DNA of 17,533 nucleotides from Nitrososphaeraceae archaeon (GTDB lineage: Archaea; Thermoproteota; Nitrososphaeria; Nitrososphaerales; Nitrososphaeraceae). The notes under the pieces are model-generated. The model saw only the letters and a list, made by a program, of their open reading frames with translations. It had not been told where the DNA came from and did not search any database. Positions 211-15,610 of the stretch are shown here, one piece after another. The stretch spans positions 1 to 17,533 of the forward strand of contig DATFEP010000046.1 of the NCBI GenBank assembly GCA_035250975.1, written 5' to 3'. The translations under genes and the position numbers were made by a program. The stretch's first letter is position 1. Every line of letters begins with the position of its first letter.

Positions 211-1363
211 ATTCCATTTTCATAACGAATAAAGCTAGTTTATTGGTGTATGATGTTTTGGTGTAACTATCATCCAAACCAACAAACTAACACAGCAGAA
301 AAGATCTACATCTATTCTAATTAGTATTTTGTATTTAATTGGTTTGATTCGTTGGCCTCATAACAGTAGAGGAGGAGGACGTGGTAGACCATATGTCTAT
401 TCGCCTACTGTTATTTTGAGATGTTTTGTAGTACGTATATGGTTTCGATTGGATTCCAACAGAGCATTGCATGAATACCTTGCAATGGAAGTACCATATA
501 ACAAAAAGGTAATGAGAGTATGTGGACTATCCAGAATACCTTGCAGACGAACATTTGATAGACGTATTGCTACGATATCTAATGATATCAAAAACAGAAT
601 TACTACAATGGGTAAACTTTTTGTGCATGATAAAATGATTGATCCATCTATTCTTTCAACAGATAGTACTCTCATAAAGGCTAAAGGTCATGTATGGCAC
701 AAATCATTTATGAAGAAAAAAGTAGTACCTCGTTCTGGTATCGACATAGATGCAATGTGGGGATTCAGCCATACAAAGGGTTGGATATTTGGATATAAAC
801 TACATCTGATATCTACCAGTACCGGTTCTATCATTGTACCTTTGGCAGCCGATTTTACAACTGCCAACATACCTGACAATCAAATGTACAGTATATTGGT
901 AGCAAGTCTACCTCTTGCAATAATCAGAAGAACATTATACATGTCTGCAGATCCTGGATATGATGATCATGAATTGTATGATCTCAGTACAGATATGGGA
1001 TTTAGATTGGTGTGTCCTGTACAGAGATATAAAAATACACCTGCTGACAGGATAAAACTGATAGAATTTTATGAATCGGATATTGGACATGCTATCTATT
1101 CTCTAAGAAGTATATCAATTGAACCGTTGATAGGGCATATCAAATCTGCGTTCAGGATAGATCCATTACCTATTAGAGGATATACTAGGGCTTGTGCAAT
1201 AGTCCTATTGTCAGTACTACTTTACCAGATAGTTGTATATTATAACTAAGACAACCAACAAAGATAATCCTATCGCAATCAAATACATGTTAGGAACATA
1301 AAGATTGACTACATGCTAGTGTAAACATTACAATATTTGTTAATCGAATTATGACCCAGTCTC
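194..1363 (+). mobile_element. Insertion sequence (~1.17 kb), IS4/IS5-superfamily DDE type
   Basis: Imperfect terminal inverted repeats TTGAGGCTGGGTTATAATT (192-210) and AATTATGACCCAGTCTCAA (1347-1365; 17/19 match to the reverse complement) enclose a single DDE transposase ORF. Ends placed at GAG...CTC, uncertain by ~2 bp. No clean target-site duplication seen. Confidence 0.85.
329..1249 (+). CDS. DDE transposase (DDE_Tnp_1-like), probably C-terminally frameshifted
   Basis: N-terminal GRGRP..Y motif; STDST (D1), GWIFGYKLHL, SADPGYD (D2), YSLRSISIEPLIGHIK (YREK-like, E). The frame is open upstream to 254, so the true start may precede 329. After the TAA at 1247-1249 another frame reads KTTNKDNPIAIKYMLGT* to 1301, the likely original tail. 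Confidence 0.88.
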   Translation: MYLIGLIRWPHNSRGGGRGRPYVYSPTVILRCFVVRIWFRLDSNRALHEYLAMEVPYNKKVMRVCGLSRIPCRRTFDRRIATISNDIKNRITTMGKLFVHDKMIDPSILSTDSTLIKAKGHVWHKSFMKKKVVPRSGIDIDAMWGFSHTKGWIFGYKLHLISTSTGSIIVPLAADFTTANIPDNQMYSILVASLPLAIIRRTLYMSADPGYDDHELYDLSTDMGFRLVCPVQRYKNTPADRIKLIEFYESDIGHAIYSLRSISIEPLIGHIKSAFRIDPLPIRGYTRACAIVLLSVLLYQIVVYYN

Positions 1364-1977: not shown

Positions 1978-2406
1978 TTGTCAAATATAAGAAATTTAAA
2001 TACACCTGTAGTTGAAATTGGTGCAAATGAAAAACCACGAGATATTGAACATATTCTTGATTTGAAAAACATACATGATCAACTAAAAATTAGTACTAAT
2101 ACGCAGAAAACAATTCTAAAAAAATTAGAAGGCGAAAATGATCATTATTCAAAACTAGAAAAAATTTTGCTGGATGTGAAAAATGCCGTTAAATCGACTA
2201 ACAATCCTAATCACAAAAGGGAATTACAATCACTGGGACAGATCAAATCTCAAATCTCCCAACTGCAATCAAATGTAAAGAAAATTGGTAGTGATATAGA
2301 TACAATAAATACATCAAAATATAATAATAAAAAGAAAGAGGAGAAGCAGAAGAATAAACAAATGAAGAAAGAGGAGAAGCAGAAGAATAAACAAATGAAG
2401 AAATAA
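1978..2406 (+). CDS. Hypothetical coiled-coil protein with Lys/Glu-rich repeated C-terminus
   Basis: 142-aa ORF with TTG start; heptad-like L/I..Q/K pattern; ends KKKEEKQKNKQMKKEEKQKNKQMKK. Confidence 0.65.
   Translation: MSNIRNLNTPVVEIGANEKPRDIEHILDLKNIHDQLKISTNTQKTILKKLEGENDHYSKLEKILLDVKNAVKSTNNPNHKRELQSLGQIKSQISQLQSNVKKIGSDIDTINTSKYNNKKKEEKQKNKQMKKEEKQKNKQMKK
2332..2403 (+). repeat. Perfect 33-bp in-frame tandem repeat (2.2 copies)
   Basis: AAGAAAGAGGAGAAGCAGAAGAATAAACAAATG at 2332-2364 and 2365-2397, plus AAGAAA. Confidence 0.95.
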
Positions 2407-2651: not shown

Positions 2652-3425
2652 TTATTTATTGAATGGAACTTTTAAAAATTGATCTATTTTTTGTTTTAAC
2701 TCGTTAAGTACTTCTTCTACTGTTCGATTTCCATTAATTTTAATAATTCCATATTTTCTTTGTATTCTACTAAATTCTTGCTTCATTTTCTTTTGATAGA
2801 GAATAAAAGATTCTAAAAGATCTTCAGAGAACCCCATATCTTCTCCAGATTCGTAATAATCAAGAAAATTATCTTTATCAAAAATTCCTTTCAAAAGTTC
2901 CTCTGTAGATTTTTGAAAGGCCCTTCGTATAAGTTCATTTGGATCTACATCTAAATAAAAAACAAGATCGGGTTTAATTGCAAAACCATATAAATTATAT
3001 GACCATATTCTATTAATTTTTCTTACAGCATCCCTAGCCATAAGTGTGTAGATATACCTATCTGCTAATACTATATATCCGGCTCTCAAAGCTGGGATTA
3101 TTTTGTTCTCTAGTTGATCTGCAAAATCTGCAGCATAAAATAAACTCATGGTCCTTTTTCTTAATAAATGTCTTTCTTTTGCCTCTAGTATTCCTTCACT
3201 TACCAGTTCAGATCTTCTGAGACCTGTATTAAGAACTGCGTGACCATTTGCTTCAAGATAATTATTTAATAATAAGATTTGTGTACTTCTTCCGGATGAA
3301 TCTGGTCCTTCTAATATGATCAATCTACCTTTTAATTCTATATTTTTTAAATAAGGAATTCCATGTCCATAATATTTAATAATATTAGATTTTTCCATTT
3401 TTTTTATCTTATTTGAATTATTCAT
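2652..3425 (-). CDS. Thymidylate-kinase-like P-loop protein, subunit B (variant Walker A)
   Basis: LIILEGPDSSGRSTQ, AGYIVLADRYIYT, KPDLVFYLDV, INGNRTVEEV; TMPK fold motifs; ATGA overlap with upstream paralog. Confidence 0.9.
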   Translation of the reverse strand: MNNSNKIKKMEKSNIIKYYGHGIPYLKNIELKGRLIILEGPDSSGRSTQILLLNNYLEANGHAVLNTGLRRSELVSEGILEAKERHLLRKRTMSLFYAADFADQLENKIIPALRAGYIVLADRYIYTLMARDAVRKINRIWSYNLYGFAIKPDLVFYLDVDPNELIRRAFQKSTEELLKGIFDKDNFLDYYESGEDMGFSEDLLESFILYQKKMKQEFSRIQRKYGIIKINGNRTVEEVLNELKQKIDQFLKVPFNK

Positions 3426-4144
3426 TTTACTATCTCTCCCGGAATAGTATTGTTAAATTTTTCTCTAACCATTTTTTGTTGTTGTTCTATATTTAGTGTT
3501 CCGTCTATAACAGTGAAATTTTCAGTCGTGGCCATTTTCTCATATTGTTCTATTATTCTACTTTGAAAAATACGATAACTTTCATAAATATCATTACTTA
3601 AATTTAGATCCATCCCCGCCTCGTAATATTTTAGCTTGGGTCTTCCAGATAATATTCGTCCTGCAGCTACATCCACCGGAACTCTGAAATAAAATGTGAT
3701 ATCAGGTTTTAAAGCAAAATCATATACTTTTCTGATCCATAGCGGATCACATCCTCTTACTATATCTCGTGCATATGCTGTATAGACATATCTATCTGCC
3801 AATACTATGTAACCAGCTCTTAATAATGGAAAAATATTCCTTTCGTACCGATCTGCAAAATCAGTTGCGTGGAGTAACGAAAATGTTGTAGGTGTAAGTT
3901 GTTCTTTTTTCTTACCTCTAGAGGTAACATTTTTTACAATTACAGATGAATTCCACTCTGATAAAAAAGCTGGTGTATTCTTAAATTTAAGCCATTTATC
4001 AAGAAGATGAATTTGTGTTGATTTTCCTGATCCATCAATTCCTTCAACTATAATTAATTTACCTTTTATATCGTACTTATTTTTTCTTTTGGTTGTGGTA
4101 TTAGCTGTTATTTTACTAGATCTTCTTATTTTTATCTGTGTCAT
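3422..4144 (-). CDS. Thymidylate-kinase-like P-loop protein, subunit A (intact Walker A)
   Basis: LIIVEGIDGSGKSTQ, AGYIVLADRYVYT, KPDITFYF, VIDGTLNIE; ATGA overlap with ppx stop. Confidence 0.9.
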   Translation of the reverse strand: MTQIKIRRSSKITANTTTKRKNKYDIKGKLIIVEGIDGSGKSTQIHLLDKWLKFKNTPAFLSEWNSSVIVKNVTSRGKKKEQLTPTTFSLLHATDFADRYERNIFPLLRAGYIVLADRYVYTAYARDIVRGCDPLWIRKVYDFALKPDITFYFRVPVDVAAGRILSGRPKLKYYEAGMDLNLSNDIYESYRIFQSRIIEQYEKMATTENFTVIDGTLNIEQQQKMVREKFNNTIPGEIVK

Positions 4145-5775
4145 TTACTATATGTACTCCTTTTTTTGCCTTGGACCAATAATGTATATTCTATCGAAAG
4201 ATCAAATGAAGACTTAAAATCTGAAATTATTTCTTTAAATAAAATTTCTGGAAAGGAAAAGATGTCTTTATTTTTATCACCTTGTATTACGATTTCCAGT
4301 AAAAGCTTGTTTGTTATTTTTGTAAATTCTTTGATTTGAATTATTAATTTGTTATTTTTCACAAAATTTAAAAATCGTAAGAAAGTTGATATTCTTTCGA
4401 TAATGTTTTTAATCTTTTTTTTATCATAATAATAATATAATAGATTTCTATAATTTTCAGATAGTTCAAGAGCTATTTTCGGCTTATTGATTGCCAGCAG
4501 GGATAATGCTAATAAAATATGTTGATGATGATCCAGATTCGCGATATCCTCGTTGATGAGAATATAAAATTGACCAATATTATCATTAATGAGAATCTTG
4601 GACATATATAATATCGATTGATTAATAATAGTGTATTCATTTTTTGTTATAATTCCATTTGATAAGAATTTCTTTGCTAAGCTCGAATTGCATCTGTCTT
4701 TATTGTAACAGTTATTTAGCAGATAATTGTCCAAATTAGTTCTATTATCCAAATGACAGGATTCAAGAAAATTTAGGAGCACTCCCTCTCGTAATCCTTT
4801 TGTACTAACAATAATACTCTTAAAACCGAATTTGGACATAAGGAAGTAGATTACATATAATCCTGTCTTGATTGTTTCTGCTCTATTTGCTCCTATTACA
4901 TCTATCTTAGATAGCTCTTCTTTATTCATGTTAGATAGATGATCTTTGATGGTTGATAAAGAACGAAAATCTAGTTTGTAGTTATGTAATCTTGTGATTG
5001 GGTATTCTTTGATCAATTGATCATATCTTGCAATCGTTCTGAGAGTTCCCCCAACACCTATTAATACAGTAGATTCACTATCTATTTCTAATTCTTTTGA
5101 ATCAGGTAATTGATTCTCAATATGTTCTCCTAAAATATTGCAAACAACCTTAAATTTTTTACTAGTGGCAGTTTTGTTATCTTCATTATTTGAAAAAAAT
5201 TTCTGGGTTAGCTTCAATGCTCCCAAGGGAAGAGATATTACTCTCCTAATTCTATAATCTTTAGAACTTACTAATTCTATAGTTCCTCCCCCCAGATCAA
5301 AAAATAAGCAATTTGAAACACATAGTGAGTTCAATGCACCTAGATATGAATATGCAGCTTCTTCATTAGCTGATAATAATTTGAATTTAAATCCTGTTTC
5401 TTCTTCTACTTTTTTCAGAAACAATTTCTTATTTTGCGCTTCACGTACTGCGCTAGTAGCAAATGGTATTGTAAATTCAATAGATTCAGAATTAATAACA
5501 TCACGAAAATATTTTAGAGATTCAATAGTTCTATCGATAGCCTCTGTTCGAAGGTATCCTGTTTTGTTTAGACCATCTCCAAGTTTCACCCTGATAGTTT
5601 TCTCATAGTATTTTGTATAAGATTTATTAGGAGATATGATATAATGAACTAATTTTAGAGAATTATATCCCAAATCTATTACCGATACTTTACGGTATGA
5701 AAGTTTTCCATAAGTCATTTTGTTTATGGTCTTACTTAGATGATACTCTTTAATACTCTCGGTGTAAGTAACCAT
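4141..5775 (-). CDS. ppx: Ppx/GppA family exopolyphosphatase (likely true start ATG at 5718)
   Basis: ASKHA motifs IDLGYNS, ATSAVREAQN, EEAAYSYLG, DLGGGTIEL, SLPLGA, GVGGTLRTIA, GLREG; divergent helical C-terminal region. Confidence 0.92.
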   Translation of the reverse strand: MVTYTESIKEYHLSKTINKMTYGKLSYRKVSVIDLGYNSLKLVHYIISPNKSYTKYYEKTIRVKLGDGLNKTGYLRTEAIDRTIESLKYFRDVINSESIEFTIPFATSAVREAQNKKLFLKKVEEETGFKFKLLSANEEAAYSYLGALNSLCVSNCLFFDLGGGTIELVSSKDYRIRRVISLPLGALKLTQKFFSNNEDNKTATSKKFKVVCNILGEHIENQLPDSKELEIDSESTVLIGVGGTLRTIARYDQLIKEYPITRLHNYKLDFRSLSTIKDHLSNMNKEELSKIDVIGANRAETIKTGLYVIYFLMSKFGFKSIIVSTKGLREGVLLNFLESCHLDNRTNLDNYLLNNCYNKDRCNSSLAKKFLSNGIITKNEYTIINQSILYMSKILINDNIGQFYILINEDIANLDHHQHILLALSLLAINKPKIALELSENYRNLLYYYYDKKKIKNIIERISTFLRFLNFVKNNKLIIQIKEFTKITNKLLLEIVIQGDKNKDIFSFPEILFKEIISDFKSSFDLSIEYTLLVQGKKRSTYSK

Positions 5776-6266
5776 CTTAATTCTCCCTGTAAAGTAGGTA
5801 CAGTGGAAGTTATTCTAATTTTCGATAAACCTGCCTTCTTTAGGATAATATTACTATTTGATTTTATGTCATTATTAGTCTTATTTTTATTACTACTAGT
5901 ATTTGATATGATGTCACTAATCATGGTACTGAGATATGGTTCATGTCCAACAATTAGAATAGAAGACATTTGATTAAATTCAGATATAATTTTGTAAACA
6001 TTTAATATATTTCCTTCTGGTTGTAGATCTTTGCATTTTAAGATTTTTACTTTTTTATTAAATAAATTATTTATTATATCCGCAGTTTCTAGACTTGAAG
6101 AGATAGTACTTGATAATATCAGATCGATTTTGATTTTTAATTTTTTAATTGATTTTCCTATTTTTTCAATTTCAGATCTTCCTGAAAATGTTAGAGAGTG
6201 ATTGGAATCTACAGACGAGTATAGTTTTTTAGATGTTTCTCCATGTCTAAGTATATAGAGTTCCAA
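5736..6266 (-). CDS. sixA: SixA-like histidine phosphatase superfamily protein
   Basis: LYILRHG, ILIVGHEP, LKKAG, LRWLLTP; first gene of the operon; some pocket arginines missing. Confidence 0.85.
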   Translation of the reverse strand: MELYILRHGETSKKLYSSVDSNHSLTFSGRSEIEKIGKSIKKLKIKIDLILSSTISSSLETADIINNLFNKKVKILKCKDLQPEGNILNVYKIISEFNQMSSILIVGHEPYLSTMISDIISNTSSNKNKTNNDIKSNSNIILKKAGLSKIRITSTVPTLQGELRWLLTPRVLKSII

Positions 6267-6629
6267 GATATTGATTCAATTGTTATATAGGAATAAGAAA
6301 TTTTAGTTTTACATATGTATTCAATATAGTATATCATAGTAAATATAGTAGACAATAGAAAATTATCTGGAAAGATATAAGCATATTCTTTAAAGTTTTA
6401 TCTTAAATATATGCAAATTGATATACATTAGATAAAATGATGCAGTCTAACATATTAAATAATGATGAAAATTTAGTAAAGGGAATAAAATGAAATCGTC
6501 AAATGTGTCGTTTAATAATCAAAAAAATAATGATAATGATAGAAGAAATAATTTTTGGAAGAAATTCTACGGAGCAAAGATGAATTTCAAAAGGTATATT
6601 TTTTATTTTATAATTCCATTAATTAAGAT

Positions 6630-7193
6630 ATGTCTTTTCTAAATACACTACATTCCGGAAAAAACCCCCCAGAAGATATTAATGTAGTCATAGAGATTCC
6701 AAAGGGCAGTAACATAAAATATGAATTAGATCCTACAAATGGTATTTTGTATCTAGATAGAATACTGTCAGTTGAAATGGTTTATCCTTTTAATTATGGA
6801 TTCATTCCGAATACTCTTGAAAAGTCAGATAAACTTACCACTTCCAAAGATAATTTAGATGTCTTTGTTATCGGGATCGAGTCCCTACAACCGAAAAGTG
6901 TTGTTAACTGTGTTCCTATTGGAGCAATCTTAACTGAAGATCAAGATGGACTAGACTCGAAAATAATTGCAAGACCATCGTCAAAAACAGATAAATTAAA
7001 TAATGAGTTTTTAAATGATTTAGAAGATATAAATTCACATATCCTGAAAAAATTAATACACTTTATTGAACATCATAAGGATCTAGAAGACAATAAATTT
7101 GTAAAAATTATAGAAATTGCACACAAAGAAAGAGCAAAAAGAATAGTTTTAGAGGGAATAAAGAATTATGAAAAGCATGTCAAATCGTTATGA
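6630..7193 (+). CDS. ppa: Family I soluble inorganic pyrophosphatase
   Basis: VVIEIPKGSNIKYELD, LDR, YPFNYGFIPNT, DNLDV, EDQDGLDSKII, HKDLE. Confidence 0.93.
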   Translation: MSFLNTLHSGKNPPEDINVVIEIPKGSNIKYELDPTNGILYLDRILSVEMVYPFNYGFIPNTLEKSDKLTTSKDNLDVFVIGIESLQPKSVVNCVPIGAILTEDQDGLDSKIIARPSSKTDKLNNEFLNDLEDINSHILKKLIHFIEHHKDLEDNKFVKIIEIAHKERAKRIVLEGIKNYEKHVKSL

Positions 7194-7299: not shown

Positions 7300-7968
7300 C
7301 TATGAGAAACTTTTATGATTCAACTTTATCCATTCTGGATATCCAACTGAATTCTTTCGTTCAAGTTTTATCGCGAAATCTTTCAAGATCTTTTGAACTG
7401 CCTTACGAAATTCTCTCTCATTATTCCTCTTTCCAATACTCTCAAATCCTATTGTCCACCATGCTGTAGCATTTTCGTTCATAATCTTGGTAATTTCACA
7501 TTGTAGCCCGTCATCTTTATCGATATTGATCCATTCAACTGATTTATATGAATTCTCTTGAAAAAGATATCTCCTTAGAAACCTCAATTTTTCTAACTTT
7601 AAAATAGGTCCATTATTTGGACTGGGAAAAGGGTCGATTCTACTGTCATTGGATAGCGGAAGGTCATCTAATATCCATCCCAACTTTGTCCAATCTTCCA
7701 TATTGCCATATATCTGTCTCCCTGTTACTGAAAAATCAGATTTTATATCTTTTCTCCATTTTATTTCAAGTCTGAATCTCGGTTTATTTGTTTTTTCATC
7801 ATTAAAAGGCCTTAACTTGATACCAATATCTTCGCTATTTAGGAGAAAGATATATCGGTCTTCTCGAGGATCCTCTCTGATAAACACATCATCAATCGTT
7901 TTAAACCAATCCAAAGCTAATTTGTAATTAGTCATATCATCTTCAAACCATCTGAGTTCCCAAGGCAT
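7300..7968 (-). CDS. Hypothetical protein, probable CYTH/triphosphate-tunnel-like fold
   Basis: Order of motifs WELRWF, REDRY, GIKLR, LEIKWR, KLRFLRRY, CEIT, TIGFES, GYPEW mirrors the CYTH strand pattern; polyP gene context. Confidence 0.6.
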   Translation of the reverse strand: MPWELRWFEDDMTNYKLALDWFKTIDDVFIREDPREDRYIFLLNSEDIGIKLRPFNDEKTNKPRFRLEIKWRKDIKSDFSVTGRQIYGNMEDWTKLGWILDDLPLSNDSRIDPFPSPNNGPILKLEKLRFLRRYLFQENSYKSVEWINIDKDDGLQCEITKIMNENATAWWTIGFESIGKRNNEREFRKAVQKILKDFAIKLERKNSVGYPEWIKLNHKSFS

Positions 7969-8205: not shown

Positions 8206-10263
8206 TTATACCAGAAATTTATCACGCCTTTGAATATGATTCTCTTTGTTTTTCGCATCATTATCAAAATCAAATATACCATTCTGCCAAGTAAATTCTC
8301 TAAATATCTGTCTTTTCTTTATATTATGCTGTTGTTCAGTTTTTAGTAATAATGATAATATCTTCACCGCTTCCACTATAAACTTGCCTTTGTTTAGCAT
8401 TACGCATTCGGCCCTATGACCTCTTGCGGCATCAGTTATTTCAGCCCTTGTAGGTAGACCACTCTTAGCTAATGTTTCAAGAACTTGTGTAGCCAAAATA
8501 ACAGGAACGTGTGCAGCTTCACATAAACACAAGATATCCTCTTGAATTAGAGACAAATTTTCAAATCCCATTTCTACAGCAAGGTCCCCTCTTGCAATTA
8601 ATACACCAAATTTAGGCAAGGAAAGTCCGGTTAAAAGAATTTTTCCTAAATTGTGAACAGCATTACGATTTTCTATTTTTGCTATTACTCCAAAATCAGT
8701 ATTTCCCAGTTTTACCAACTCATCATACAAATTTCTTACATCTTCAGGAGAATGCGCAAAGGATATTCCTACTGCAGTTGCATTTTTCACAATAAATTTT
8801 AGATCTTTAATATCTTGGGATGTTATAGCAGGAATATCTAAATTTGAATCGGGAAAATTCAATCCCTTCTCTGATTGAATCTTTGCAGTCTTATCTGATG
8901 GATATGTTATTTCTAATTCTAAATATTGATCGTTAGTGGATATTACTTTAGCATCAATTTTTCCATCATCTATTAAGACTCTATGACCTATCTCCACTTT
9001 GCTTAAAACTTCTGGCATTGTACAACTAATTCTACCATAACCCTCGAAAAGATTCGAGTTTTCGTTAAATTCTTTCTTATTGATCAAAATTTTATCACCT
9101 GCCTTTACTTCAAGATCTATCGGATGTGGTTTAATTGTGCCAATGACAATACCTCGCTGAATTTCTCTAGGATATGGACACAGGTTAGTATTGTCTTCTT
9201 TGTTTTTGATGTAGAATTTGTTAACAAAATATTTCTCTCTATGTATAATTAAACCTTCATCCAGATATACTGATTTGTCTATTCCAACACGTGTTCGGGT
9301 TTTACTTACCTTTTCGAGAACAGTCATCATTCGATATTTTCCCCGAGAATCATAAAATAATAATCTCTCTCCTACCTCAAGTTCAGTTAATTCTTGCTTT
9401 CCATCTGATACAGAAATTACAAAACTTTCAGGAACGCCTATCAAATTTGTTCTTTCAGTATATTCTGCCTCACAATCGAAAAATCCCTCAACCAATTTAA
9501 CGGATCTTCCGTATGTGTCCTTCGGAACAGTAATTTTTAAAGGACCTGTTCCTAAACTCGTCTGTTTTATTCTGATTTTGGGTCCGGCTAAATCCATAAC
9601 AATTCTGCATTTTCTACCAACACCATGACCGCTCTGAATCAACCTATCCTCGGTATTTCTGATAGATTCTATTATCATTTTCCAGTTTTGTTCTGTATCA
9701 TAAGCACAGTTTATTCTTGCAATATCCATTCCGTTCTTTAGTAACTCCTCTAGTAATTGCGGCTGGTGAGCTATGCCAATATCTACAGTCACCATTATAC
9801 GAGTTGTTCTATTATCTCTGGGACGGCCTAATAATAATCGACTACGGTTTGTAATTATTACTTGAGCATCATCTTGATTTATTTTCTCCAGAGTTGTATT
9901 AGAATTGATAACGTATCCATAATGTTTCAAAATTTGTTCTATACTAATTAGTACATGATCTTCTAATCTTCCTAAAGAAGAAAGACCATCCTCAGCCAAT
10001 CTTAGTTGAAGTTGTTCTATGTTTCTTTTTCTTAAAACAAGATAACACAATAGGTTGTCACAGCATTTGTTCTTTGACTGAAAATTACTGTCATTTATCT
10101 TGAAATATTCTTTTATTTTTTCAGACTCATTGATTATACCATTATATAATAAATATAGATCCCTTCCTAACTTTCTCTGTTCATTAGTGAGGGAGATTGA
10201 TTGAATATCATCTGTATAATCGTTATTTGTGGCTAGATTCATTTTTGTTCCACTGTAAAACAA
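8206..10263 (-). CDS. pyk: Atypical long pyruvate kinase family protein
   Basis: TRIMVT, GMDIARINC, DLAGPKIR, IDDGKI, KGLNFP, IAKIE, IARGDLAVE, ATQVLE, PTRAEITD, CVMLNKG. Has a ~150-aa N-terminal extension (YLVLR...GLSSLGRLE) and no C-terminal allosteric domain. Confidence 0.9.
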   Translation of the reverse strand: MFYSGTKMNLATNNDYTDDIQSISLTNEQRKLGRDLYLLYNGIINESEKIKEYFKINDSNFQSKNKCCDNLLCYLVLRKRNIEQLQLRLAEDGLSSLGRLEDHVLISIEQILKHYGYVINSNTTLEKINQDDAQVIITNRSRLLLGRPRDNRTTRIMVTVDIGIAHQPQLLEELLKNGMDIARINCAYDTEQNWKMIIESIRNTEDRLIQSGHGVGRKCRIVMDLAGPKIRIKQTSLGTGPLKITVPKDTYGRSVKLVEGFFDCEAEYTERTNLIGVPESFVISVSDGKQELTELEVGERLLFYDSRGKYRMMTVLEKVSKTRTRVGIDKSVYLDEGLIIHREKYFVNKFYIKNKEDNTNLCPYPREIQRGIVIGTIKPHPIDLEVKAGDKILINKKEFNENSNLFEGYGRISCTMPEVLSKVEIGHRVLIDDGKIDAKVISTNDQYLELEITYPSDKTAKIQSEKGLNFPDSNLDIPAITSQDIKDLKFIVKNATAVGISFAHSPEDVRNLYDELVKLGNTDFGVIAKIENRNAVHNLGKILLTGLSLPKFGVLIARGDLAVEMGFENLSLIQEDILCLCEAAHVPVILATQVLETLAKSGLPTRAEITDAARGHRAECVMLNKGKFIVEAVKILSLLLKTEQQHNIKKRQIFREFTWQNGIFDFDNDAKNKENHIQRRDKFLV

Positions 10264-10311
10264 TTAAATATTTATATTTTAAATAACCTTTCTTTAGTTT
10301 TATAAAATTCA

Positions 10312-10452
10312 TTAATGTTCTTTTTCGCTCTCTCTTCTGTCTATTAACGCTATAACAATATTATTACCTTCACGATCTTGTATTTGTATTTCTTTACCAG
10401 TAAACGATACACCTTCAGCTCCTTTTTTTATATGAGTATATTTTTTTTTCAT
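10312..10452 (-). CDS. Small hypothetical protein (46 aa), not in ORF track
   Basis: MKKKYTHIKKGAEGVSFTGKEIQIQDREGNNIVIALIDRRESEKEH*; ATG start, co-oriented, ends 48 bp before the pyk ORF. Confidence 0.35.
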   Translation of the reverse strand: MKKKYTHIKKGAEGVSFTGKEIQIQDREGNNIVIALIDRRESEKEH

Positions 10453-11095
10453 TTCTTTAGTATAAAATATTGGAAACTAATTTATTTAGTCTTATTCTAT
10501 TAAAACTATTTAGATCATTATAGGGAACCTGTTAACCACAATAGATGTTCCACTTCTATGCACTACTTTGTCGATCTTTTAGTTTAATGAGGCATGTACT
10601 GTATTGTTATTACTATATTTGATAAATGGAAAATGTCTTTTGAACTAAGAATTTGCATTATTTATTACGCTATCTCTATCTTTAGGAGTTGCAGGTTTCT
10701 GAATCCATACAAGACGTTTTATTCAATAAATTATGTAGTATAGCTAAAATCGTGGTTTGAGTTTGTTATGAAATTTGAGTTTTATCGATTGTATTTGGTC
10801 TTTTAGAACCATACGGTCAATCCACCTGCTACTTTGTGTGCCATTTCCAGTATATATAAAAAATCATCCGAAATACACCATATGTTTTATATGTCATCTA
10901 ATTTAGACGCACATATTTCTGTCGAAAACGGCGTCTTCTTATTTTTTTCTAAACCTCTTTATATTGTAAACGGGATAATAAGCCTCACTTTTATCTAGTT
11001 AAAGAGTGTACTTTAGTTATGCAATAATACAATGCCAAGCAGAGTGCATTTATAAAAAATATTAATAACAATAAATATAGTAGATATTATCAAAG

Positions 11096-11923
11096 TTGCT
11101 AACTCTATTACCATTTTTAATAAAACTACATCAAAGTATTGAAAGATTGAACCATAGAACCAATGCATATATTAAAAATTCTAATGAAAAAAATATCCAC
11201 GATGTAAGAACTTCTGTTAGAAGATTCAACTCGACATTTTTGTCATTACCTAAAAAATACAGAACCGGACCAATGTTACTATCTGAATATAATCAAATTG
11301 CAAATAAATTTTTTAAAATTAATAGTAAAATCAGAGATTACGATATTATCTTTGACATATTAAATAATTACCCACAAAACAGTCAGAGAGATCTAGTTAT
11401 TGATTCTATTAAAAAAGATAGACAATCAAATTTAGAAAAAGCAAAAACAATAGCAATTTCTCTAAAAGATCTCGGTGCTAATGAAGTTGTAGATAAAATG
11501 AATATTACAGAAAGGGAATTGCAGAAACGATATAATAAAGTTCTTTCAAACCTCATTTCAAAAATAGAATTAAACCTTCCTATTGTAATAACTAATGCTA
11601 AAAAAATAGAAGAATTACATCAATTGAGGAAAGACTGTAAAAAAATGAGATATATGTTGGAGTTATTACCGGAAGAAAACAGAGATGCAATAGAATTAAA
11701 AAAGATTTTTGAAAAAATTCAGGATCATCTTGGCTCTATTCACGACTTTGATATAACTATCAATTATTTACAATCATTGCAACCGAATAAAGAAATTCAA
11801 GAAATGATAAATACTGAAACAGAAAAAAGGAGATTGAAATATGAAGAATTTTTGAACTTTTCCAAAAGACGTTTACAGTTAACAAGAGATTCTTTCCTCA
11901 TAAGAATCAAGATCTTGAAATAA
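11096..11923 (+). CDS. CHAD domain protein (polyphosphate-binding)
   Basis: Two His/basic repeats IHDVRTSVRR and LHQLRKDCKKMRY, plus IRDYD and QDHLGSIHD; stand-alone all-helical domain. Confidence 0.92.
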   Translation: MLTLLPFLIKLHQSIERLNHRTNAYIKNSNEKNIHDVRTSVRRFNSTFLSLPKKYRTGPMLLSEYNQIANKFFKINSKIRDYDIIFDILNNYPQNSQRDLVIDSIKKDRQSNLEKAKTIAISLKDLGANEVVDKMNITERELQKRYNKVLSNLISKIELNLPIVITNAKKIEELHQLRKDCKKMRYMLELLPEENRDAIELKKIFEKIQDHLGSIHDFDITINYLQSLQPNKEIQEMINTETEKRRLKYEEFLNFSKRRLQLTRDSFLIRIKILK

Positions 11924-12213: not shown

Positions 12214-12660
12214 TTGGCAATAGAATGGGATAGCTTAGTAATAGAAATGATACTTCTTGCAGGAATAATTTGGTTTGCAGTATACATTGAACATTGGGCA
12301 TATAAAAGGACTCAACAACAACAGGATAAAAAGACTAGAAATAATATTTTCCTATTCATCAAAGACGACCTTGAACATAGATTACGTTTTATAGAAGAAT
12401 CAATTAATTACAAAGATTATAAGCCTTTTTTTACTGATATGTGGGATGCTGTAATTCTATCTGGCAAACAATCTTTTCTCTCGTTTGAATTATTTCAAAA
12501 TATTCAAAGAACATATTCATGGATGAAATATTATAATAGTGAATTAGAAAATAATAAAAATAGTGTCTCAAAAGAAAAAATACTGGTAGAATTATTGGAA
12601 GATGTAAAAAAGTATATCAACAAATCTTTACATAGGATTCAGATTGAGGGAGAAAATTAA
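12214..12660 (+). CDS. Hypothetical protein with N-terminal membrane anchor
   Basis: 148 aa; hydrophobic LVIEMILLAGIIWFAVYI followed by a helical soluble region (FFTDMWDAV, YSWMKYYN). Confidence 0.75.
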   Translation: MAIEWDSLVIEMILLAGIIWFAVYIEHWAYKRTQQQQDKKTRNNIFLFIKDDLEHRLRFIEESINYKDYKPFFTDMWDAVILSGKQSFLSFELFQNIQRTYSWMKYYNSELENNKNSVSKEKILVELLEDVKKYINKSLHRIQIEGEN

Positions 12661-12943: not shown

Positions 12944-14020
12944 TTAGAGTGTATCAAGGCTTAGATTAGGATTATCACTTTGGTTATCTGCAGATTTTTC
13001 TATACTAAATTTGTCCTTAATTTCGCCGTCATTTCCATAAAATTTCGCATCAAGTCGGTTTCCATTGTCTACAACTTTTATTTCCAAAAATCCATACTCT
13101 TCAAATTGCTCCGCATTAAAATAAGACTGATCGTCCAATTGGTGAAAATCCTTTCCTCCAGTACCAACTATTGCAAAAATAGTACCTTGGGAATCAACGT
13201 ACAAATCTTCTCCCGACCCTTCTCCTAAAACTGCTGCTTGGATAATTGTAGGTTTTGCCGGATTTTCATCATTATATAATAGTGGATAAGTTCTTTGATA
13301 ATTATGAAGATGTCCTTGTAATACTAAATCTACTCCAAATTTTTCAAAGAGACCGTGATAAGTATCCCTAAATGATTCTAATCCCTCGTGATTACTTTTG
13401 GAAGTATACATTGCCTGATGGAAATATATGATTATCCAGTCAATAGATGAATCAGTTTTTGTTTTTATTAAATCATCATGAACAAATTGAAATTGTTTTG
13501 ACCCCTCTTCATAAGGTGCTTCTGTAGACATTGCTATAAAATGGACATTGTTATGATTAAAAGAATAATACTGTTGATCAACATTTGTATAATCCATATA
13601 TTGTTTTGCTAATGATTGGCTCTCGAATTCGTGATTACCAAAAGATATTTTGAGTTTTTGAGGATCTATTTCTTCTACAATGTCCTTCCAACATTTCATA
13701 TTCTTCTGATAGGAATAATCTCCTAATCCCAATATTATGTCAGGATTTGTAGCTAGAATATTACTAGCAGTTTTTATTGCTTCTTTATTACAACTCCAGT
13801 CTCCTACTGCTGCAAAAGTGAAATCTTGCTCACCGAAGTCATTTGCTCCATGATCTTTTTTCTGCTCTATATTAACAGAATTATAAGAAACAAAAGAATT
13901 GTTAGGCATCTTCTCCGAATACGTTAATTTCGGACAAAAAATAATGGATATACTAGTTAACATTATAAAACACAATACTACTATTGATGTTGTACCTTTT
14001 TTCAAATTTATTAAACTCAT
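12944..14020 (-). CDS. Secreted or membrane-anchored calcineurin-like metallophosphoesterase (purple acid phosphatase-like)
   Basis: AAVGDW, GLGDYSY, FGNHE, YFH, QGHLHNYQR, VGTGG motifs; N-terminal basic plus hydrophobic signal/TM segment. Confidence 0.9.
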   Translation of the reverse strand: MSLINLKKGTTSIVVLCFIMLTSISIIFCPKLTYSEKMPNNSFVSYNSVNIEQKKDHGANDFGEQDFTFAAVGDWSCNKEAIKTASNILATNPDIILGLGDYSYQKNMKCWKDIVEEIDPQKLKISFGNHEFESQSLAKQYMDYTNVDQQYYSFNHNNVHFIAMSTEAPYEEGSKQFQFVHDDLIKTKTDSSIDWIIIYFHQAMYTSKSNHEGLESFRDTYHGLFEKFGVDLVLQGHLHNYQRTYPLLYNDENPAKPTIIQAAVLGEGSGEDLYVDSQGTIFAIVGTGGKDFHQLDDQSYFNAEQFEEYGFLEIKVVDNGNRLDAKFYGNDGEIKDKFSIEKSADNQSDNPNLSLDTL

Positions 14021-14833: not shown

Positions 14834-15610
14834 TTAAGACACAAATGAGTTTTGGTATTTTTGAGTACGTGACTTATACCCATTATTCATTCTTGCGTTT
14901 GCAATCTTAAATTTTTCAGAATCTTTTTCTATACCTATGAATTTTCTCTTCATGTTAAAAGCAGCAATTCCAACAGTGCCTAATCCCATCATAGGATCCA
15001 ATACCGTTTGATATTCTATTGTAAGATTTTTTATGATATATTCTGCTTCAACTGAGGACTGTTCCCGGTCATCAGGTGTTTTAGGTAAAGGTTTAGCATC
15101 AATATGGTCTCCAATTGTATTAGATAAAGTCAAGTTATTTGTTTTGTCTCCTTTCACATACCATAGCATTGGATTCCATTCTACACAAACATTCCTTGGA
15201 TAGACTTTCGAATGATTTCGGGAATGCTTAACGCAAAAAATCCACCAGTATTTTAGATTATCATTATTGTCGTCAAATAGCCGTATAACGTGATCCAGAA
15301 TTACATGATCTACAAAAAAGACCAGACTACCTCCTGGTTTCAGTACTCTATCAGCTAGCCATGCTAGCCCCTCATAAATGGAAAGTGCTTCAAATCCGTA
15401 AGGTGGTTCCGTCAGAATGAGGTCGATAGAATTATCATCTATAATGTACTTCTCTTTTTCCATGAAATCTGCATGAATCAACCTGCAGTTACTTGATCCA
15501 TTATTATTATTGGCATCAATATTAGACAAGACAATTTTAACATCCTGGAGATACAAGCAAGCCATATCGTGTACATAGTTCGCTGAAATTATTTGTAATA
15601 TCATGAACAA
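14834..15610 (-). CDS. Orphan N6A/N4C DNA methyltransferase, beta-class order, variant motif IV
   Basis: SIDLILTEPPY (motif IV), RVLKPGG, VLDPMMGLGTVGIAA (motif I), RKFIGIE...IANAR. Start may be the ATG at 15565. Confidence 0.85.
   Translation of the reverse strand: MFMILQIISANYVHDMACLYLQDVKIVLSNIDANNNNGSSNCRLIHADFMEKEKYIIDDNSIDLILTEPPYGFEALSIYEGLAWLADRVLKPGGSLVFFVDHVILDHVIRLFDDNNDNLKYWWIFCVKHSRNHSKVYPRNVCVEWNPMLWYVKGDKTNNLTLSNTIGDHIDAKPLPKTPDDREQSSVEAEYIIKNLTIEYQTVLDPMMGLGTVGIAAFNMKRKFIGIEKDSEKFKIANARMNNGYKSRTQKYQNSFVS

Follow-up and report, generated by a model that had tools for sequence, protein, structure and literature searches.

The gene at positions 8206..10263 (minus strand) of a 17,533-nucleotide stretch of DNA from a Nitrososphaeraceae archaeon, a soil ammonia oxidiser (assembly GCA_035250975.1, contig DATFEP010000046.1; this whole stretch is referred to below as the window) is, judged by profile matches and aligned residues, an archaeal representative of NF011314/PRK14725, the family of long pyruvate kinases of the Pyk2 type, and is located in an island of polyphosphate (polyP) genes. 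Relatives of this gene stand beside polyP genes in separate archaeal and bacterial lineages, which suggests that phosphoenolpyruvate (PEP) is linked to the polyP and energy reserve. The encoded protein is regarded here, with moderate confidence, as a Pyk2-type kinase that depends on ADP and was drawn into a module serving polyP, phosphate and energy stress, the best reading being that of an accessory gene which joined a PPK3-like pair, Ppx, SixA, an inorganic pyrophosphatase (PPase), a TTM protein and a CHAD protein, and not that of a housekeeping glycolytic enzyme. What is observed for the window gene is its family, the conservation of its residues and its linkage to other genes; ADP-dependent activity is that of its relative Pyk2 and would apply here by analogy, and a physiological coupling of the kinase to the polyP module is what we infer from the whole.

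Identification of a long pyruvate kinase homologue

When read from its TTG start, the open reading frame (ORF) at 8206-10263 (-) comprises 685 aa; the ATG at 10242 (Met8), on which gene callers and orthologues agree and which yields a protein of 678 aa, is probably the true start. The Pfam profile of the pyruvate kinase barrel, PF00224, matches in two stretches (E 2.6e-51; 175.1 bits against a curated cut-off of 30), and no further Pfam family was matched at E ≤ 0.01, hence no model of the C-terminal domain (PF02887). The NCBIfam profile NF011314/PRK14725 aligns residues 27-659 with model positions 13-609 (E 1.1e-180; 602 bits). Bacterial members placed around the archaeal protein on the tree exceed the curated cut-off of NF011314, which is 642 bits (L033 653, L075 651, L090 656 and L087 760 bits), and the scores of neighbouring clades straddle it (the first three of these against 638 for L081 and 553 for L096). 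The gene is under purifying selection, i.e. maintained, because dN/dS values of 0.13-0.18 were obtained against four orthologues.

The closest relatives (~50% identical) belong to Nitrososphaeraceae, Nitrospirota and Heliobacteria, and those with 31-41% identity to thermophilic Bacillaceae, Corynebacterium, Pseudomonas and Bacteroidota. An earlier examination of the window from its letters alone (the original prediction) had taken it as established that a long pyruvate kinase subfamily with this N-terminus exists in bacteria. The branch parting the long family from canonical pyruvate kinases received 100% support in a quick IQ-TREE analysis (a FastTree tree was also built). With canonical archaeal kinases as outgroup, the archaeal clade nests inside the bacterial family as sister to Nitrospirota and Heliobacteria, which fits an acquisition of the archaeal gene from bacteria, the root being placed by the outgroup alone. 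Two Nitrososphaeraceae assemblies have an interrupted kinase, with an in-frame stop or two separate ORFs (L052, G026:C59:37223-39082, and L039, 9926-12044), which may reflect decay or an assembly error. Proteins of 1200-3425 aa were searched for fused or longer forms, a weak type of evidence, as a Rosetta-stone hint, and none was found at E ≤ 1e-30. Low-depth contigs from three libraries labelled metatranscriptomic, 90-99% alike over parts of 8763-10276, were left unused since contigs cannot show transcription; the libraries X18 and X19 are flagged as probably DNA and X20 as RNA.

Domain architecture

The gene and its segments are as follows.

8206..10263 (-): long (Pyk2-type) pyruvate kinase homologue, matched by the PF00224 and NF011314 profiles
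9814..10242 (-): helical N-terminal extension, residues ~8-150, motif DNLL.YL.LR...LQ..LA..GLSSLGRLE (AlphaFold2 (AF2) helices 27-145)
9568..9813 (-): first part of the A domain (TIM barrel), residues 151-232, with RINCAYD and DLAGPKIR (alignment to PKM2; Pfam profile positions 2-88)
9139..9567 (-): extra beta-rich lid insert, residues ~233-375, unmatched by the Pfam pyruvate kinase profile (AF2 beta strands)
8869..9138 (-): canonical lid (B) domain, residues 376-465, with IDDGKI (Pfam and PKM2 alignments)
8329..8868 (-): second part of the A domain, residues 466-645, with KGLNFPD, AKIEN, ARGDLAVE, ATQVLE and CVMLNKG (Pfam, PKM2 and family alignments)
8206..8328 (-): short basic C-terminal tail KKRQIFREFT... 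with the stop codon and no effector domain

The AF2 model of the kinase (pLDDT 74.8) places helices at 27-145, and the structural alignment to solved pyruvate kinases, which are the top Foldseek and VIA matches (rmsd 2.6-3.7 A over 326-329 residues), begins at about residue 150 (VIA Z 27.7). The N-extension gave no Pfam match at E ≤ 10, and no top VIA or Foldseek structural match covers it. Its residues S95, S96, L97, G98 and E101 do not vary among 20 sequences, and its net charge ranges from -9 to +8 across relatives; since the charge is not consistently basic, a simple polybasic arm for binding polyP was dropped as an explanation. At the other end, ~40 aa follow the barrel, whose last helix spans 629-645, and KKRQIFR occupies 649-655. 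Both the ~150-aa helical N-extension and the lack of a C-terminal effector domain ahead of a basic KKRQIFR end had been noticed in the original prediction and are borne out by these models and alignments.

A feature absent from that prediction is the beta-rich insert of ~140 aa which precedes the canonical lid. This insert is missing in the short relatives L086 and L092, measures 143 aa in the window protein against 115 aa in the Corynebacterium homologues, and includes a clade-specific loop of low model confidence (residues 343-372). It faintly resembles the canonical lid (23 aa aligned at E 0.007), a hint that it arose by lid duplication. The N-terminal helical domain and the doubled lid, standing in place of a C-terminal effector domain, probably carry regulation and oligomerisation.

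Canonical pyruvate kinases possessing PF00224 and PF02887 (PKM2, Escherichia coli PykF, Geobacillus pyruvate kinase) share with the window protein the TIM-barrel A domain, the lid and the catalytic residues; unlike them, the window protein has the 150-aa N-extension and the doubled lid, lacks the C-terminal effector domain and is only ~20% identical in sequence. The known enzyme which it resembles in architecture is Pyk2 of Corynebacterium glutamicum (NCgl2809; Chai et al. 2016, PMC5112673), cited here and below from the accessible portion of that report: a 67.6-kDa protein with a 120-aa N-extension, a segment without model between the A-domain halves, and no C domain, for which the authors named homologues in Corynebacterium, Mycobacterium and Geobacillus. 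Like Pyk2, the window protein combines a long N-extension, an insert between the A-domain halves and the absence of a C-terminal domain. The Corynebacterium homologues L087 and L084 also have the RINCAH-type, DLAGPK[IV]R and MLNKG motifs in common with it, although they are only 31-32% identical to the window protein. Pyk2 is a second isozyme co-transcribed with ldhA in the published description, unlike the window gene, which is the sole pyruvate kinase of an archaeal autotroph and lies in a polyP island.

Active-site residues

Residues of the window protein were assigned from a HMMER alignment to PKM2 chains, with rabbit-muscle numbers taken as the chain index of 3bjt_A. The aligned residues (window protein = rabbit muscle) are listed below.

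R183 = R72 and N185 = N74: kept
A187 = S76: changed
Y188 = H77: changed
D224 = D112: kept
L225 = T113: changed
K229 = E117: changed
R231 = R119: kept
I232 = T120: aligned pair
K466 = K206 and N469 = N209: kept
K529 = K269 and E531 = E271: kept
D560 = D295: kept
T592 = T327: kept
N624 = S361: changed, the following four residues (G362-A365) being deleted

The residues R72, R119, K206, K269, E271, D295 and T327, which we take to be the phosphoryl-transfer and metal residues of pyruvate kinase, thus all have counterparts (R183, R231, K466, K529, E531, D560 and T592), and these are invariant across 20 family sequences; R72, R119, K206 and N209 presumably act at the nucleotide phosphates. The monovalent-cation site is not intact, since N74 and D112 are kept and S76, T113 and E117 are replaced by A187, L225 and K229. 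The altered motifs read RINCAYD, DLAGPKIR and MLN----KG in the window protein against RLNFSHG, DTKGPEIR and MLSGETAKG in PKM2. The PKM2 alignment agrees on every motif with the original prediction, according to which KIE, ARGD and ATQ are kept, NFSHG reads NCAYD, MLSGET reads MLNKG, and the Lys of DLAGPKIR (K229, aligned to E117) falls at the position that marks K+-independent enzymes. Two alignments, A1 with 20 and A2 with 10 sequences, were used, and RINCAH/Y, DLAGPK[ILV]R, MLNKG and the N-extension motif GLSSLGR.E are common, together with the architecture, to all 29 aligned sequences. By these alignments the odd motifs and architecture are traits that define NF011314 and are not peculiar to the window gene.

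The signature described for K+-independent pyruvate kinases, L113/K117/(L,I,V)120 (PMC5501398, PMC4284704 and PMC8835810, in the portions available), is matched by the window protein, which has Leu at 113, Lys at 117 and Ile at 120; position 114 is Ala in the window protein, unlike the Gln of the Lys117 cluster described in those sources.

The polyphosphate island

The window is AT-rich (26-35% G+C), and the genes surrounding the kinase were assigned as follows.

2652..3425 (-): dTMP-kinase-like paralogue, candidate PPK3 partner subunit (best solved relative 2plr/5h70, E 1e-33)
3422..4144 (-): dTMP-kinase-like protein, candidate PPK3 subunit (best solved relative 2plr/5h70, E 3.8e-63)
4141..5775 (-): exopolyphosphatase of the Ppx/GppA family (PF02541 E 1.4e-48; TIGR03706 240 bits)
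5736..6266 (-): SixA-like histidine phosphatase (TIGR00249 71.3 bits, cut-off 74.5; PF00300)
6630..7193 (+): family I inorganic pyrophosphatase (PF00719 E 3e-42; NF002317 173 bits)
7300..7968 (-): divergent TTM/CYTH-fold protein of 222 aa, directly downstream of the kinase on the same strand, assigned by fold
11096..11923 (+): CHAD-domain protein, divergent from the kinase (PF05235 E 1.7e-14)

The kinase is thus located between the TTM/CYTH-fold gene and the CHAD gene, 4 kb from the PPK3-like pair with Ppx and SixA. The two dTMP-kinase-like (dTMPK-like) paralogues, one of which has 240 aa, are 38% identical to each other; true thymidylate kinases match the pair at 1e-13 to 1e-15 (next best 1.6e-13 for the protein at 3422..4144). 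Standing beside ppx, sixA and CHAD genes and being closest to Saci_2019/STK_15430, the two proteins are PPK3 candidates. The PPK3 operon of Sulfolobus acidocaldarius has the order sixA-ppx-dTMPK2-dTMPK3-CHAD, 5h70 is a homologue of the PPK3 subunit Saci_2019, and Nitrososphaeraceae are listed among the carriers of PPK3 (PMC12995831, accessible portion, as for all statements on PPK3 below). By sequence criteria the polyP island in the window is real, because the pair is nearest to 5h70, the operon is the same as that of the PPK3 paper, and Nitrososphaeraceae are listed carriers; the placement of the kinase inside such an island, claimed in the original prediction, is upheld by profile matches for the dTMPK-like pair, Ppx, the SixA-like protein, PPase and CHAD. 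Like the operon of S. acidocaldarius, the window contains two dTMPK-like genes, Ppx, a SixA-like gene and CHAD; unlike that operon, it adds the long pyruvate kinase, the TTM-fold gene and the pyrophosphatase between the ppx operon and CHAD. The available part of the PPK3 paper does not mention a pyruvate kinase neighbour and refers to pyruvate kinase as an in vitro ATP-recycling enzyme only; its further supplements may list neighbours.

The 222-aa neighbour gave no Pfam match at E ≤ 10, CYTH (PF01928) included, and a profile built from 51 of its relatives found no solved CYTH protein by sequence. Its AF2 model (pLDDT 92.1, pTM 0.88) retrieved as top Foldseek matches 5a60 YgiF (6e-5), 1yem, HpAC1, AtTTM3 and SaTTM 7ns9, with E 6e-5 to 5e-4, probability 1.00 and TM 0.44-0.60, and thiamine triphosphatase is also among the best solved matches; on the strength of the model, the protein is TTM/CYTH at the level of fold (an eight-stranded tunnel), as had been anticipated for this CYTH-like neighbour. 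Its family, with 280 relatives in a representative library of 1.84 billion proteins, has nearly invariant E4 and R6 and invariant K51, K70, K127, R129 and E158. An E4-x-R6-W-F sequence is found at the N-terminus where ExExK, which we take to be the usual TTM/CYTH motif, would stand.

The intergenic region between the kinase and CHAD genes (10264-11095) is unusually long (832 bp), and a small minus-strand ORF, read by eye, seems present in it just upstream of the kinase. A search for a shared operator in the divergent promoter regions 6267-6629 and 10264-11095 gave one common 13-mer, about what chance would produce in AT-rich DNA. Beyond CHAD, an ORF of 148 aa at 12214-12660 (+) has one predicted N-terminal hydrophobic stretch and no family, and travels with the island (tblastn identity of 50-90% near the kinase in L024, L039, L045, L052 and L055). 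At 12944-14020 (-), next to the island, a metallophosphoesterase of the calcineurin-like type is encoded whose N-terminus is hydrophobic and which may be secreted; metallophosphoesterase-like genes are also found near the kinase in L045, L064 and L024 (81% identity in the last). At the island edge, an IS-type DDE transposase and a neighbouring 142-aa ORF occupy 329-1249 (+) and 1978-2406 (+), the 142-aa product being Lys/Glu-rich and ending in a duplicated KKEEKQKNKQMKK. An N6/N4 DNA methylase is encoded at 14834-15610 (-), with no obvious restriction partner among the listed ORFs.

Distribution of the kinase and of its neighbours

In the window genome (2.49 Mb, 94.6% complete) the long kinase is the only PF00224 match; the genome also carries a PEP-synthase/PPDK-like gene and, on another contig (G000:C32:20535-21194), a PPK2 gene, and a search for PPK1 in it found none. 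Among 37 genomes of the same archaeal family, which are kin and not independent and several of which are incomplete, 16 possess the long kinase and 21 are without any pyruvate kinase family match, consistent with the suggestion in the original prediction that a glycolytic pyruvate kinase has little obvious use in an autotroph. The PPK3-like pair is present in 27 of these 37 genomes, and the long kinase was found in 16 of the 27 with the pair and in none of the 10 without it. In half of the genomes that have it (8/16), the kinase and PPK3-like or CHAD genes lie on one contig, 0.6-17 kb apart, CHAD being 0.6-1.3 kb away in G016, G018, G019 and G026; in G012 and G036, which have large contigs, the kinase is not on the contig of the PPK3-like or CHAD genes. 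In the five bacterial genomes tested the long form is an accessory isozyme, as each of them has one or two canonical pyruvate kinases in addition.

The neighbourhoods of 154 homologue loci (74 from species genomes and 80 from metagenomes, with flanks totalling 1561 kb) were searched by tblastn with polyP proteins of the window and of the loci, and by Pfam scans of adjacent ORFs. PPK1, PPK2, PPK3-like, Ppx or CHAD/CYTH genes were found within 10 kb at 18 of the loci (within 2.5 kb at 14), against a chance expectation of ~2 loci if about five such genes per 4 Mb are assumed, a background that was assumed and not measured. dTMPK-like matches in the heliobacterial loci L075 and L081 (30% identity, E 1e-12 to 1e-13) were taken as thymidylate kinase and left uncounted, and L140, having only PhoU, was assigned to the Pho group and left out of the polyP group. 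The polyP-linked loci occupy at least seven separate tree positions and involve three unrelated polyP kinase families. Ten are archaeal, nine of them in or near the subclade of the window and one (L055) in another subclade. Three belong to Nitrospirota: L033 and L067 (Nitrospiraceae) have CYTH-CHAD fusions, and L062 has PhoU, PPK1 and PhoX. Six are metagenomic and bacterial: L114 and L126 with PPK2, L123 and L155 with CYTH-CHAD, L105 with the order PhoU-Ppx-PK-PPK2-x-CYTH/CHAD-PPK1 (PK, pyruvate kinase), and L131 with PPK1-SixA-like-PK. The dense island of L105 (1-9872) also includes RpiA, its PPK2 has two domains, and its PPK1 is cut by the contig end.

Genes of the Pho type adjoin the kinase as well: PhoD and GDPD in Corynebacterium (L087, L089), PhoR-PhoB-PhoU-PstS in L140, and a phosphodiesterase, a HAD protein and a phosphonate transporter in L132. 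Other loci point to carbon metabolism, with glycogen phosphorylase adjoining the kinase in 5 loci, hexokinase in L081 and phosphoglycerate kinase (PGK) in L047, and with the kinase enclosed in 2-oxoacid dehydrogenase operons in L042, L072 and L099. In these three Nitrospirota loci (L042 8053-13166, L072 6084-11899, L099 2456-6616) the kinase stands between the E1 and E2 genes, and in L072 the dehydrogenase genes are followed by a second ATP synthase operon. Arginine deiminase/ornithine carbamoyltransferase clusters accompany the kinase in L031 and L043, the latter with an amino-acid-kinase-family gene; the two stretches (L043 5799-14134, L031 2095-6885; other Nitrososphaerales) also contain CBS genes, with Usp in L043, and look like a substrate-level ATP module, unexpected in ammonia oxidisers. 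Usp, Hsp20, CBS, HD-domain, cNMP-binding and DksA proteins are further neighbours of the kinase. Reserve polymers and substrate-level ATP formation under stress are the theme that the neighbour contexts share.

Proposed function and alternative explanations

The chemistry of the window protein is most likely PEP + ADP -> pyruvate + ATP, on a barrel that keeps the phosphoryl-transfer and metal residues; pyruvate as product and ADP as acceptor would follow from the carbon contexts and from the Pyk2 data. Pyk2 has PEP + ADP activity with a kcat of 5.6 per s and S0.5 values of 4.6 mM for PEP and 0.33 mM for ADP, requires Mn2+ and a monovalent cation (K+), runs as a hexamer, and is activated by fructose 1,6-bisphosphate (FBP) and inhibited by ATP though it has no C domain; it complements a pyk1 deletion and is induced 14-fold by oxygen deprivation (PMC5112673). 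In the window protein, Lys229 occupies the spot of Lys117 of K+-independent kinases, and with its proton-relay loop (S361/E363) shortened, turnover would probably be slow. The kinase may tie the PEP pool to the ATP/ADP couple used by polyP kinases, because polyP, Pho and CHAD links recur with three unrelated polyP kinase families. Such a tie could work in two directions: as an emergency ATP supply parallel to polyP when respiration fails, which is favoured by the ATP inhibition of Pyk2 and its induction under oxygen deprivation, or as a recycler of ADP allowing PPK enzymes to build polyP, which is favoured by the finding that SaPPK3 needed a pyruvate kinase/PEP system for polyP synthesis.

Taken as a whole, the original prediction of an atypical pyruvate kinase with a non-ADP acceptor or with polyP-linked PEP phosphotransfer stands in part. 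Its architecture, motifs, island and polyP linkage were recovered, the last of these also in the neighbourhoods, where the refutation that it had named, an absence of enrichment, was not borne out (18/154 loci, in several lineages). A non-ADP acceptor is not supported, because Pyk2, of the same architecture, is an ADP-dependent pyruvate kinase; the odd motifs are family-wide, and equivalents of R72, R119, K206 and N209 are kept.

Several points weigh against an ADP-dependent Pyk2-type kinase recruited into a polyP module. With 602 bits the protein falls below the curated NF011314 cut-off despite its end-to-end alignment, and none of 61 related genomes exceeds that cut-off. Pyk2 itself is placed in NF011314 indirectly, by its published architecture, by three Corynebacterium sp. 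homologues (760 bits for L087, 705 bits for L084) and by one control genome, the cut-off being passed in 1 of 14 control genomes, among which is C. glutamicum. The MLSGET loop (S361/E363) is lost, a change common to the whole family, and Ser76 is replaced by Ala. The K+-independence rule may not hold in the long family, because Pyk2 needs K+ yet Lys is found at the E117 position in all three Corynebacterium sp. homologues (L084 and L087 aligned; L089 clusters with L087). The kinetics of Pyk2, the sole characterised relative, are poor (S0.5 for PEP 4.6 mM, kcat 5.6 per s; PMC5112673), and a better substrate or an absent activator is possible for enzymes of this type. The ATP inhibition of Pyk2 argues against keeping ATP/ADP high for polyP synthesis. 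At 136 of the 154 loci no polyP gene was seen in the flanks with the queries used and contexts were varied, and non-polyP themes are as common as polyP or commoner.

A more specific version, possible but rather doubtful, is that the long kinase drives polyP synthesis at the granule (PEP -> ATP -> polyP) in organisms whose PPK3 and PPK2 would rather break polyP down. PPK3 favours polyP breakdown in vitro, and SaPPK3 synthesised polyP in vitro only with a pyruvate kinase/PEP system holding ATP/ADP high (PMC12995831). In such a scheme the kinase, encoded beside polyP kinases and the CHAD and TTM granule proteins, would recycle ADP at the granule, and sensing the polyP system or docking onto it would be the task of its N-extension and doubled lid; if true, the family would be a conserved accessory of PPK1, PPK2 and PPK3 polyP islands across Bacteria and Archaea.

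It is considered unlikely that the protein is an ordinary pyruvate kinase which closes lower glycolysis or supplies pyruvate, and that it lies in the island only because gene order in one archaeal lineage happened to place it there. Pyk2 does work as a pyruvate kinase, the loci in which no nearby polyP gene was seen form the large majority, and the glycogen phosphorylase, hexokinase, PGK and 2-oxoacid dehydrogenase contexts are those of carbon metabolism; against this, polyP genes adjoin it in at least seven separate lineages, the polyP kinases concerned belong to three unrelated families, the kinase of the archaeal family occurs only in genomes with the PPK3-like pair (16/27 vs 0/10) and is dispensable there (21/37 genomes without a homologue), and bacteria have it in addition to canonical enzymes.

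A bypass for phosphate starvation, in which a PEP phosphatase or a low-adenylate pyruvate kinase isozyme would be produced along with the Pho regulon so as to release or save phosphate, is improbable. Pho-type neighbours in several lineages (L087, L089, L062, L140 and L132) and the secreted-type metallophosphoesterase at 12944-14020 are in its favour, but Pyk2 activity is ADP-dependent, its reported induction is by oxygen deprivation, and neither a Pho box nor a regulator was identified in the window.

Still less probable is another partner, be it GDP, another NDP, a small molecule or a reverse, ATP-dependent phosphorylation, with an N-extension that senses polyP, FBP or (p)ppGpp. The activation of Pyk2 by FBP in spite of its missing C domain, the invariant GLSSLGR.E of the N-extension, which may look like a phosphate-binding loop, and the occurrence of HD-domain, cNMP-binding, DksA and Usp neighbours would agree with such a partner, but Pfam and structural searches assigned neither a fold nor a family to the N-extension.

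The least probable explanation, direct PEP phosphoryl transfer to polyP, PPi or Pi with the ADP reaction as a side activity, could draw on the altered proton-relay loop and K+ site, the poor kinetics of Pyk2, the adjoining CHAD, TTM, PPase and Ppx genes, and a genome with PPK2 and the PPK3-like pair, PPK1 not being found and PPK3 favouring breakdown in vitro, but it is opposed by the measured ADP dependence of Pyk2 (S0.5 0.33 mM), by the conservation of the residues aligned to R119, K206 and N209, by L105 and L131, in which the kinase adjoins PPK1, itself a competent polyP synthase, and by an N-extension that is not consistently basic.

Implications

The family and one of its enzymes, Pyk2, are known already. 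No report of the archaeal member, of its status as sole pyruvate kinase or of a cross-domain link to polyP islands was found in the literature searched, the accessible portion of the PPK3 paper included, and a literature search on 'PRK14725' found no paper. For the Pyk2-type family, seen so far as a minor glycolytic isozyme of Corynebacterium, a link with polyP and Pho genes recurs in both domains. A PPK3 island that encodes a pyruvate kinase bears on the question of how polyP is built in archaea without PPK1, and since this kinase is found, within the archaeal family, only in genomes that carry PPK3, the pyruvate kinase/PEP trick employed in vitro becomes a testable hypothesis for the cell. 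For soil ammonia oxidisers, an ADP-dependent Pyk2-type kinase recruited in this way suggests an accessory module that would help the cell through shortages of energy or phosphate.

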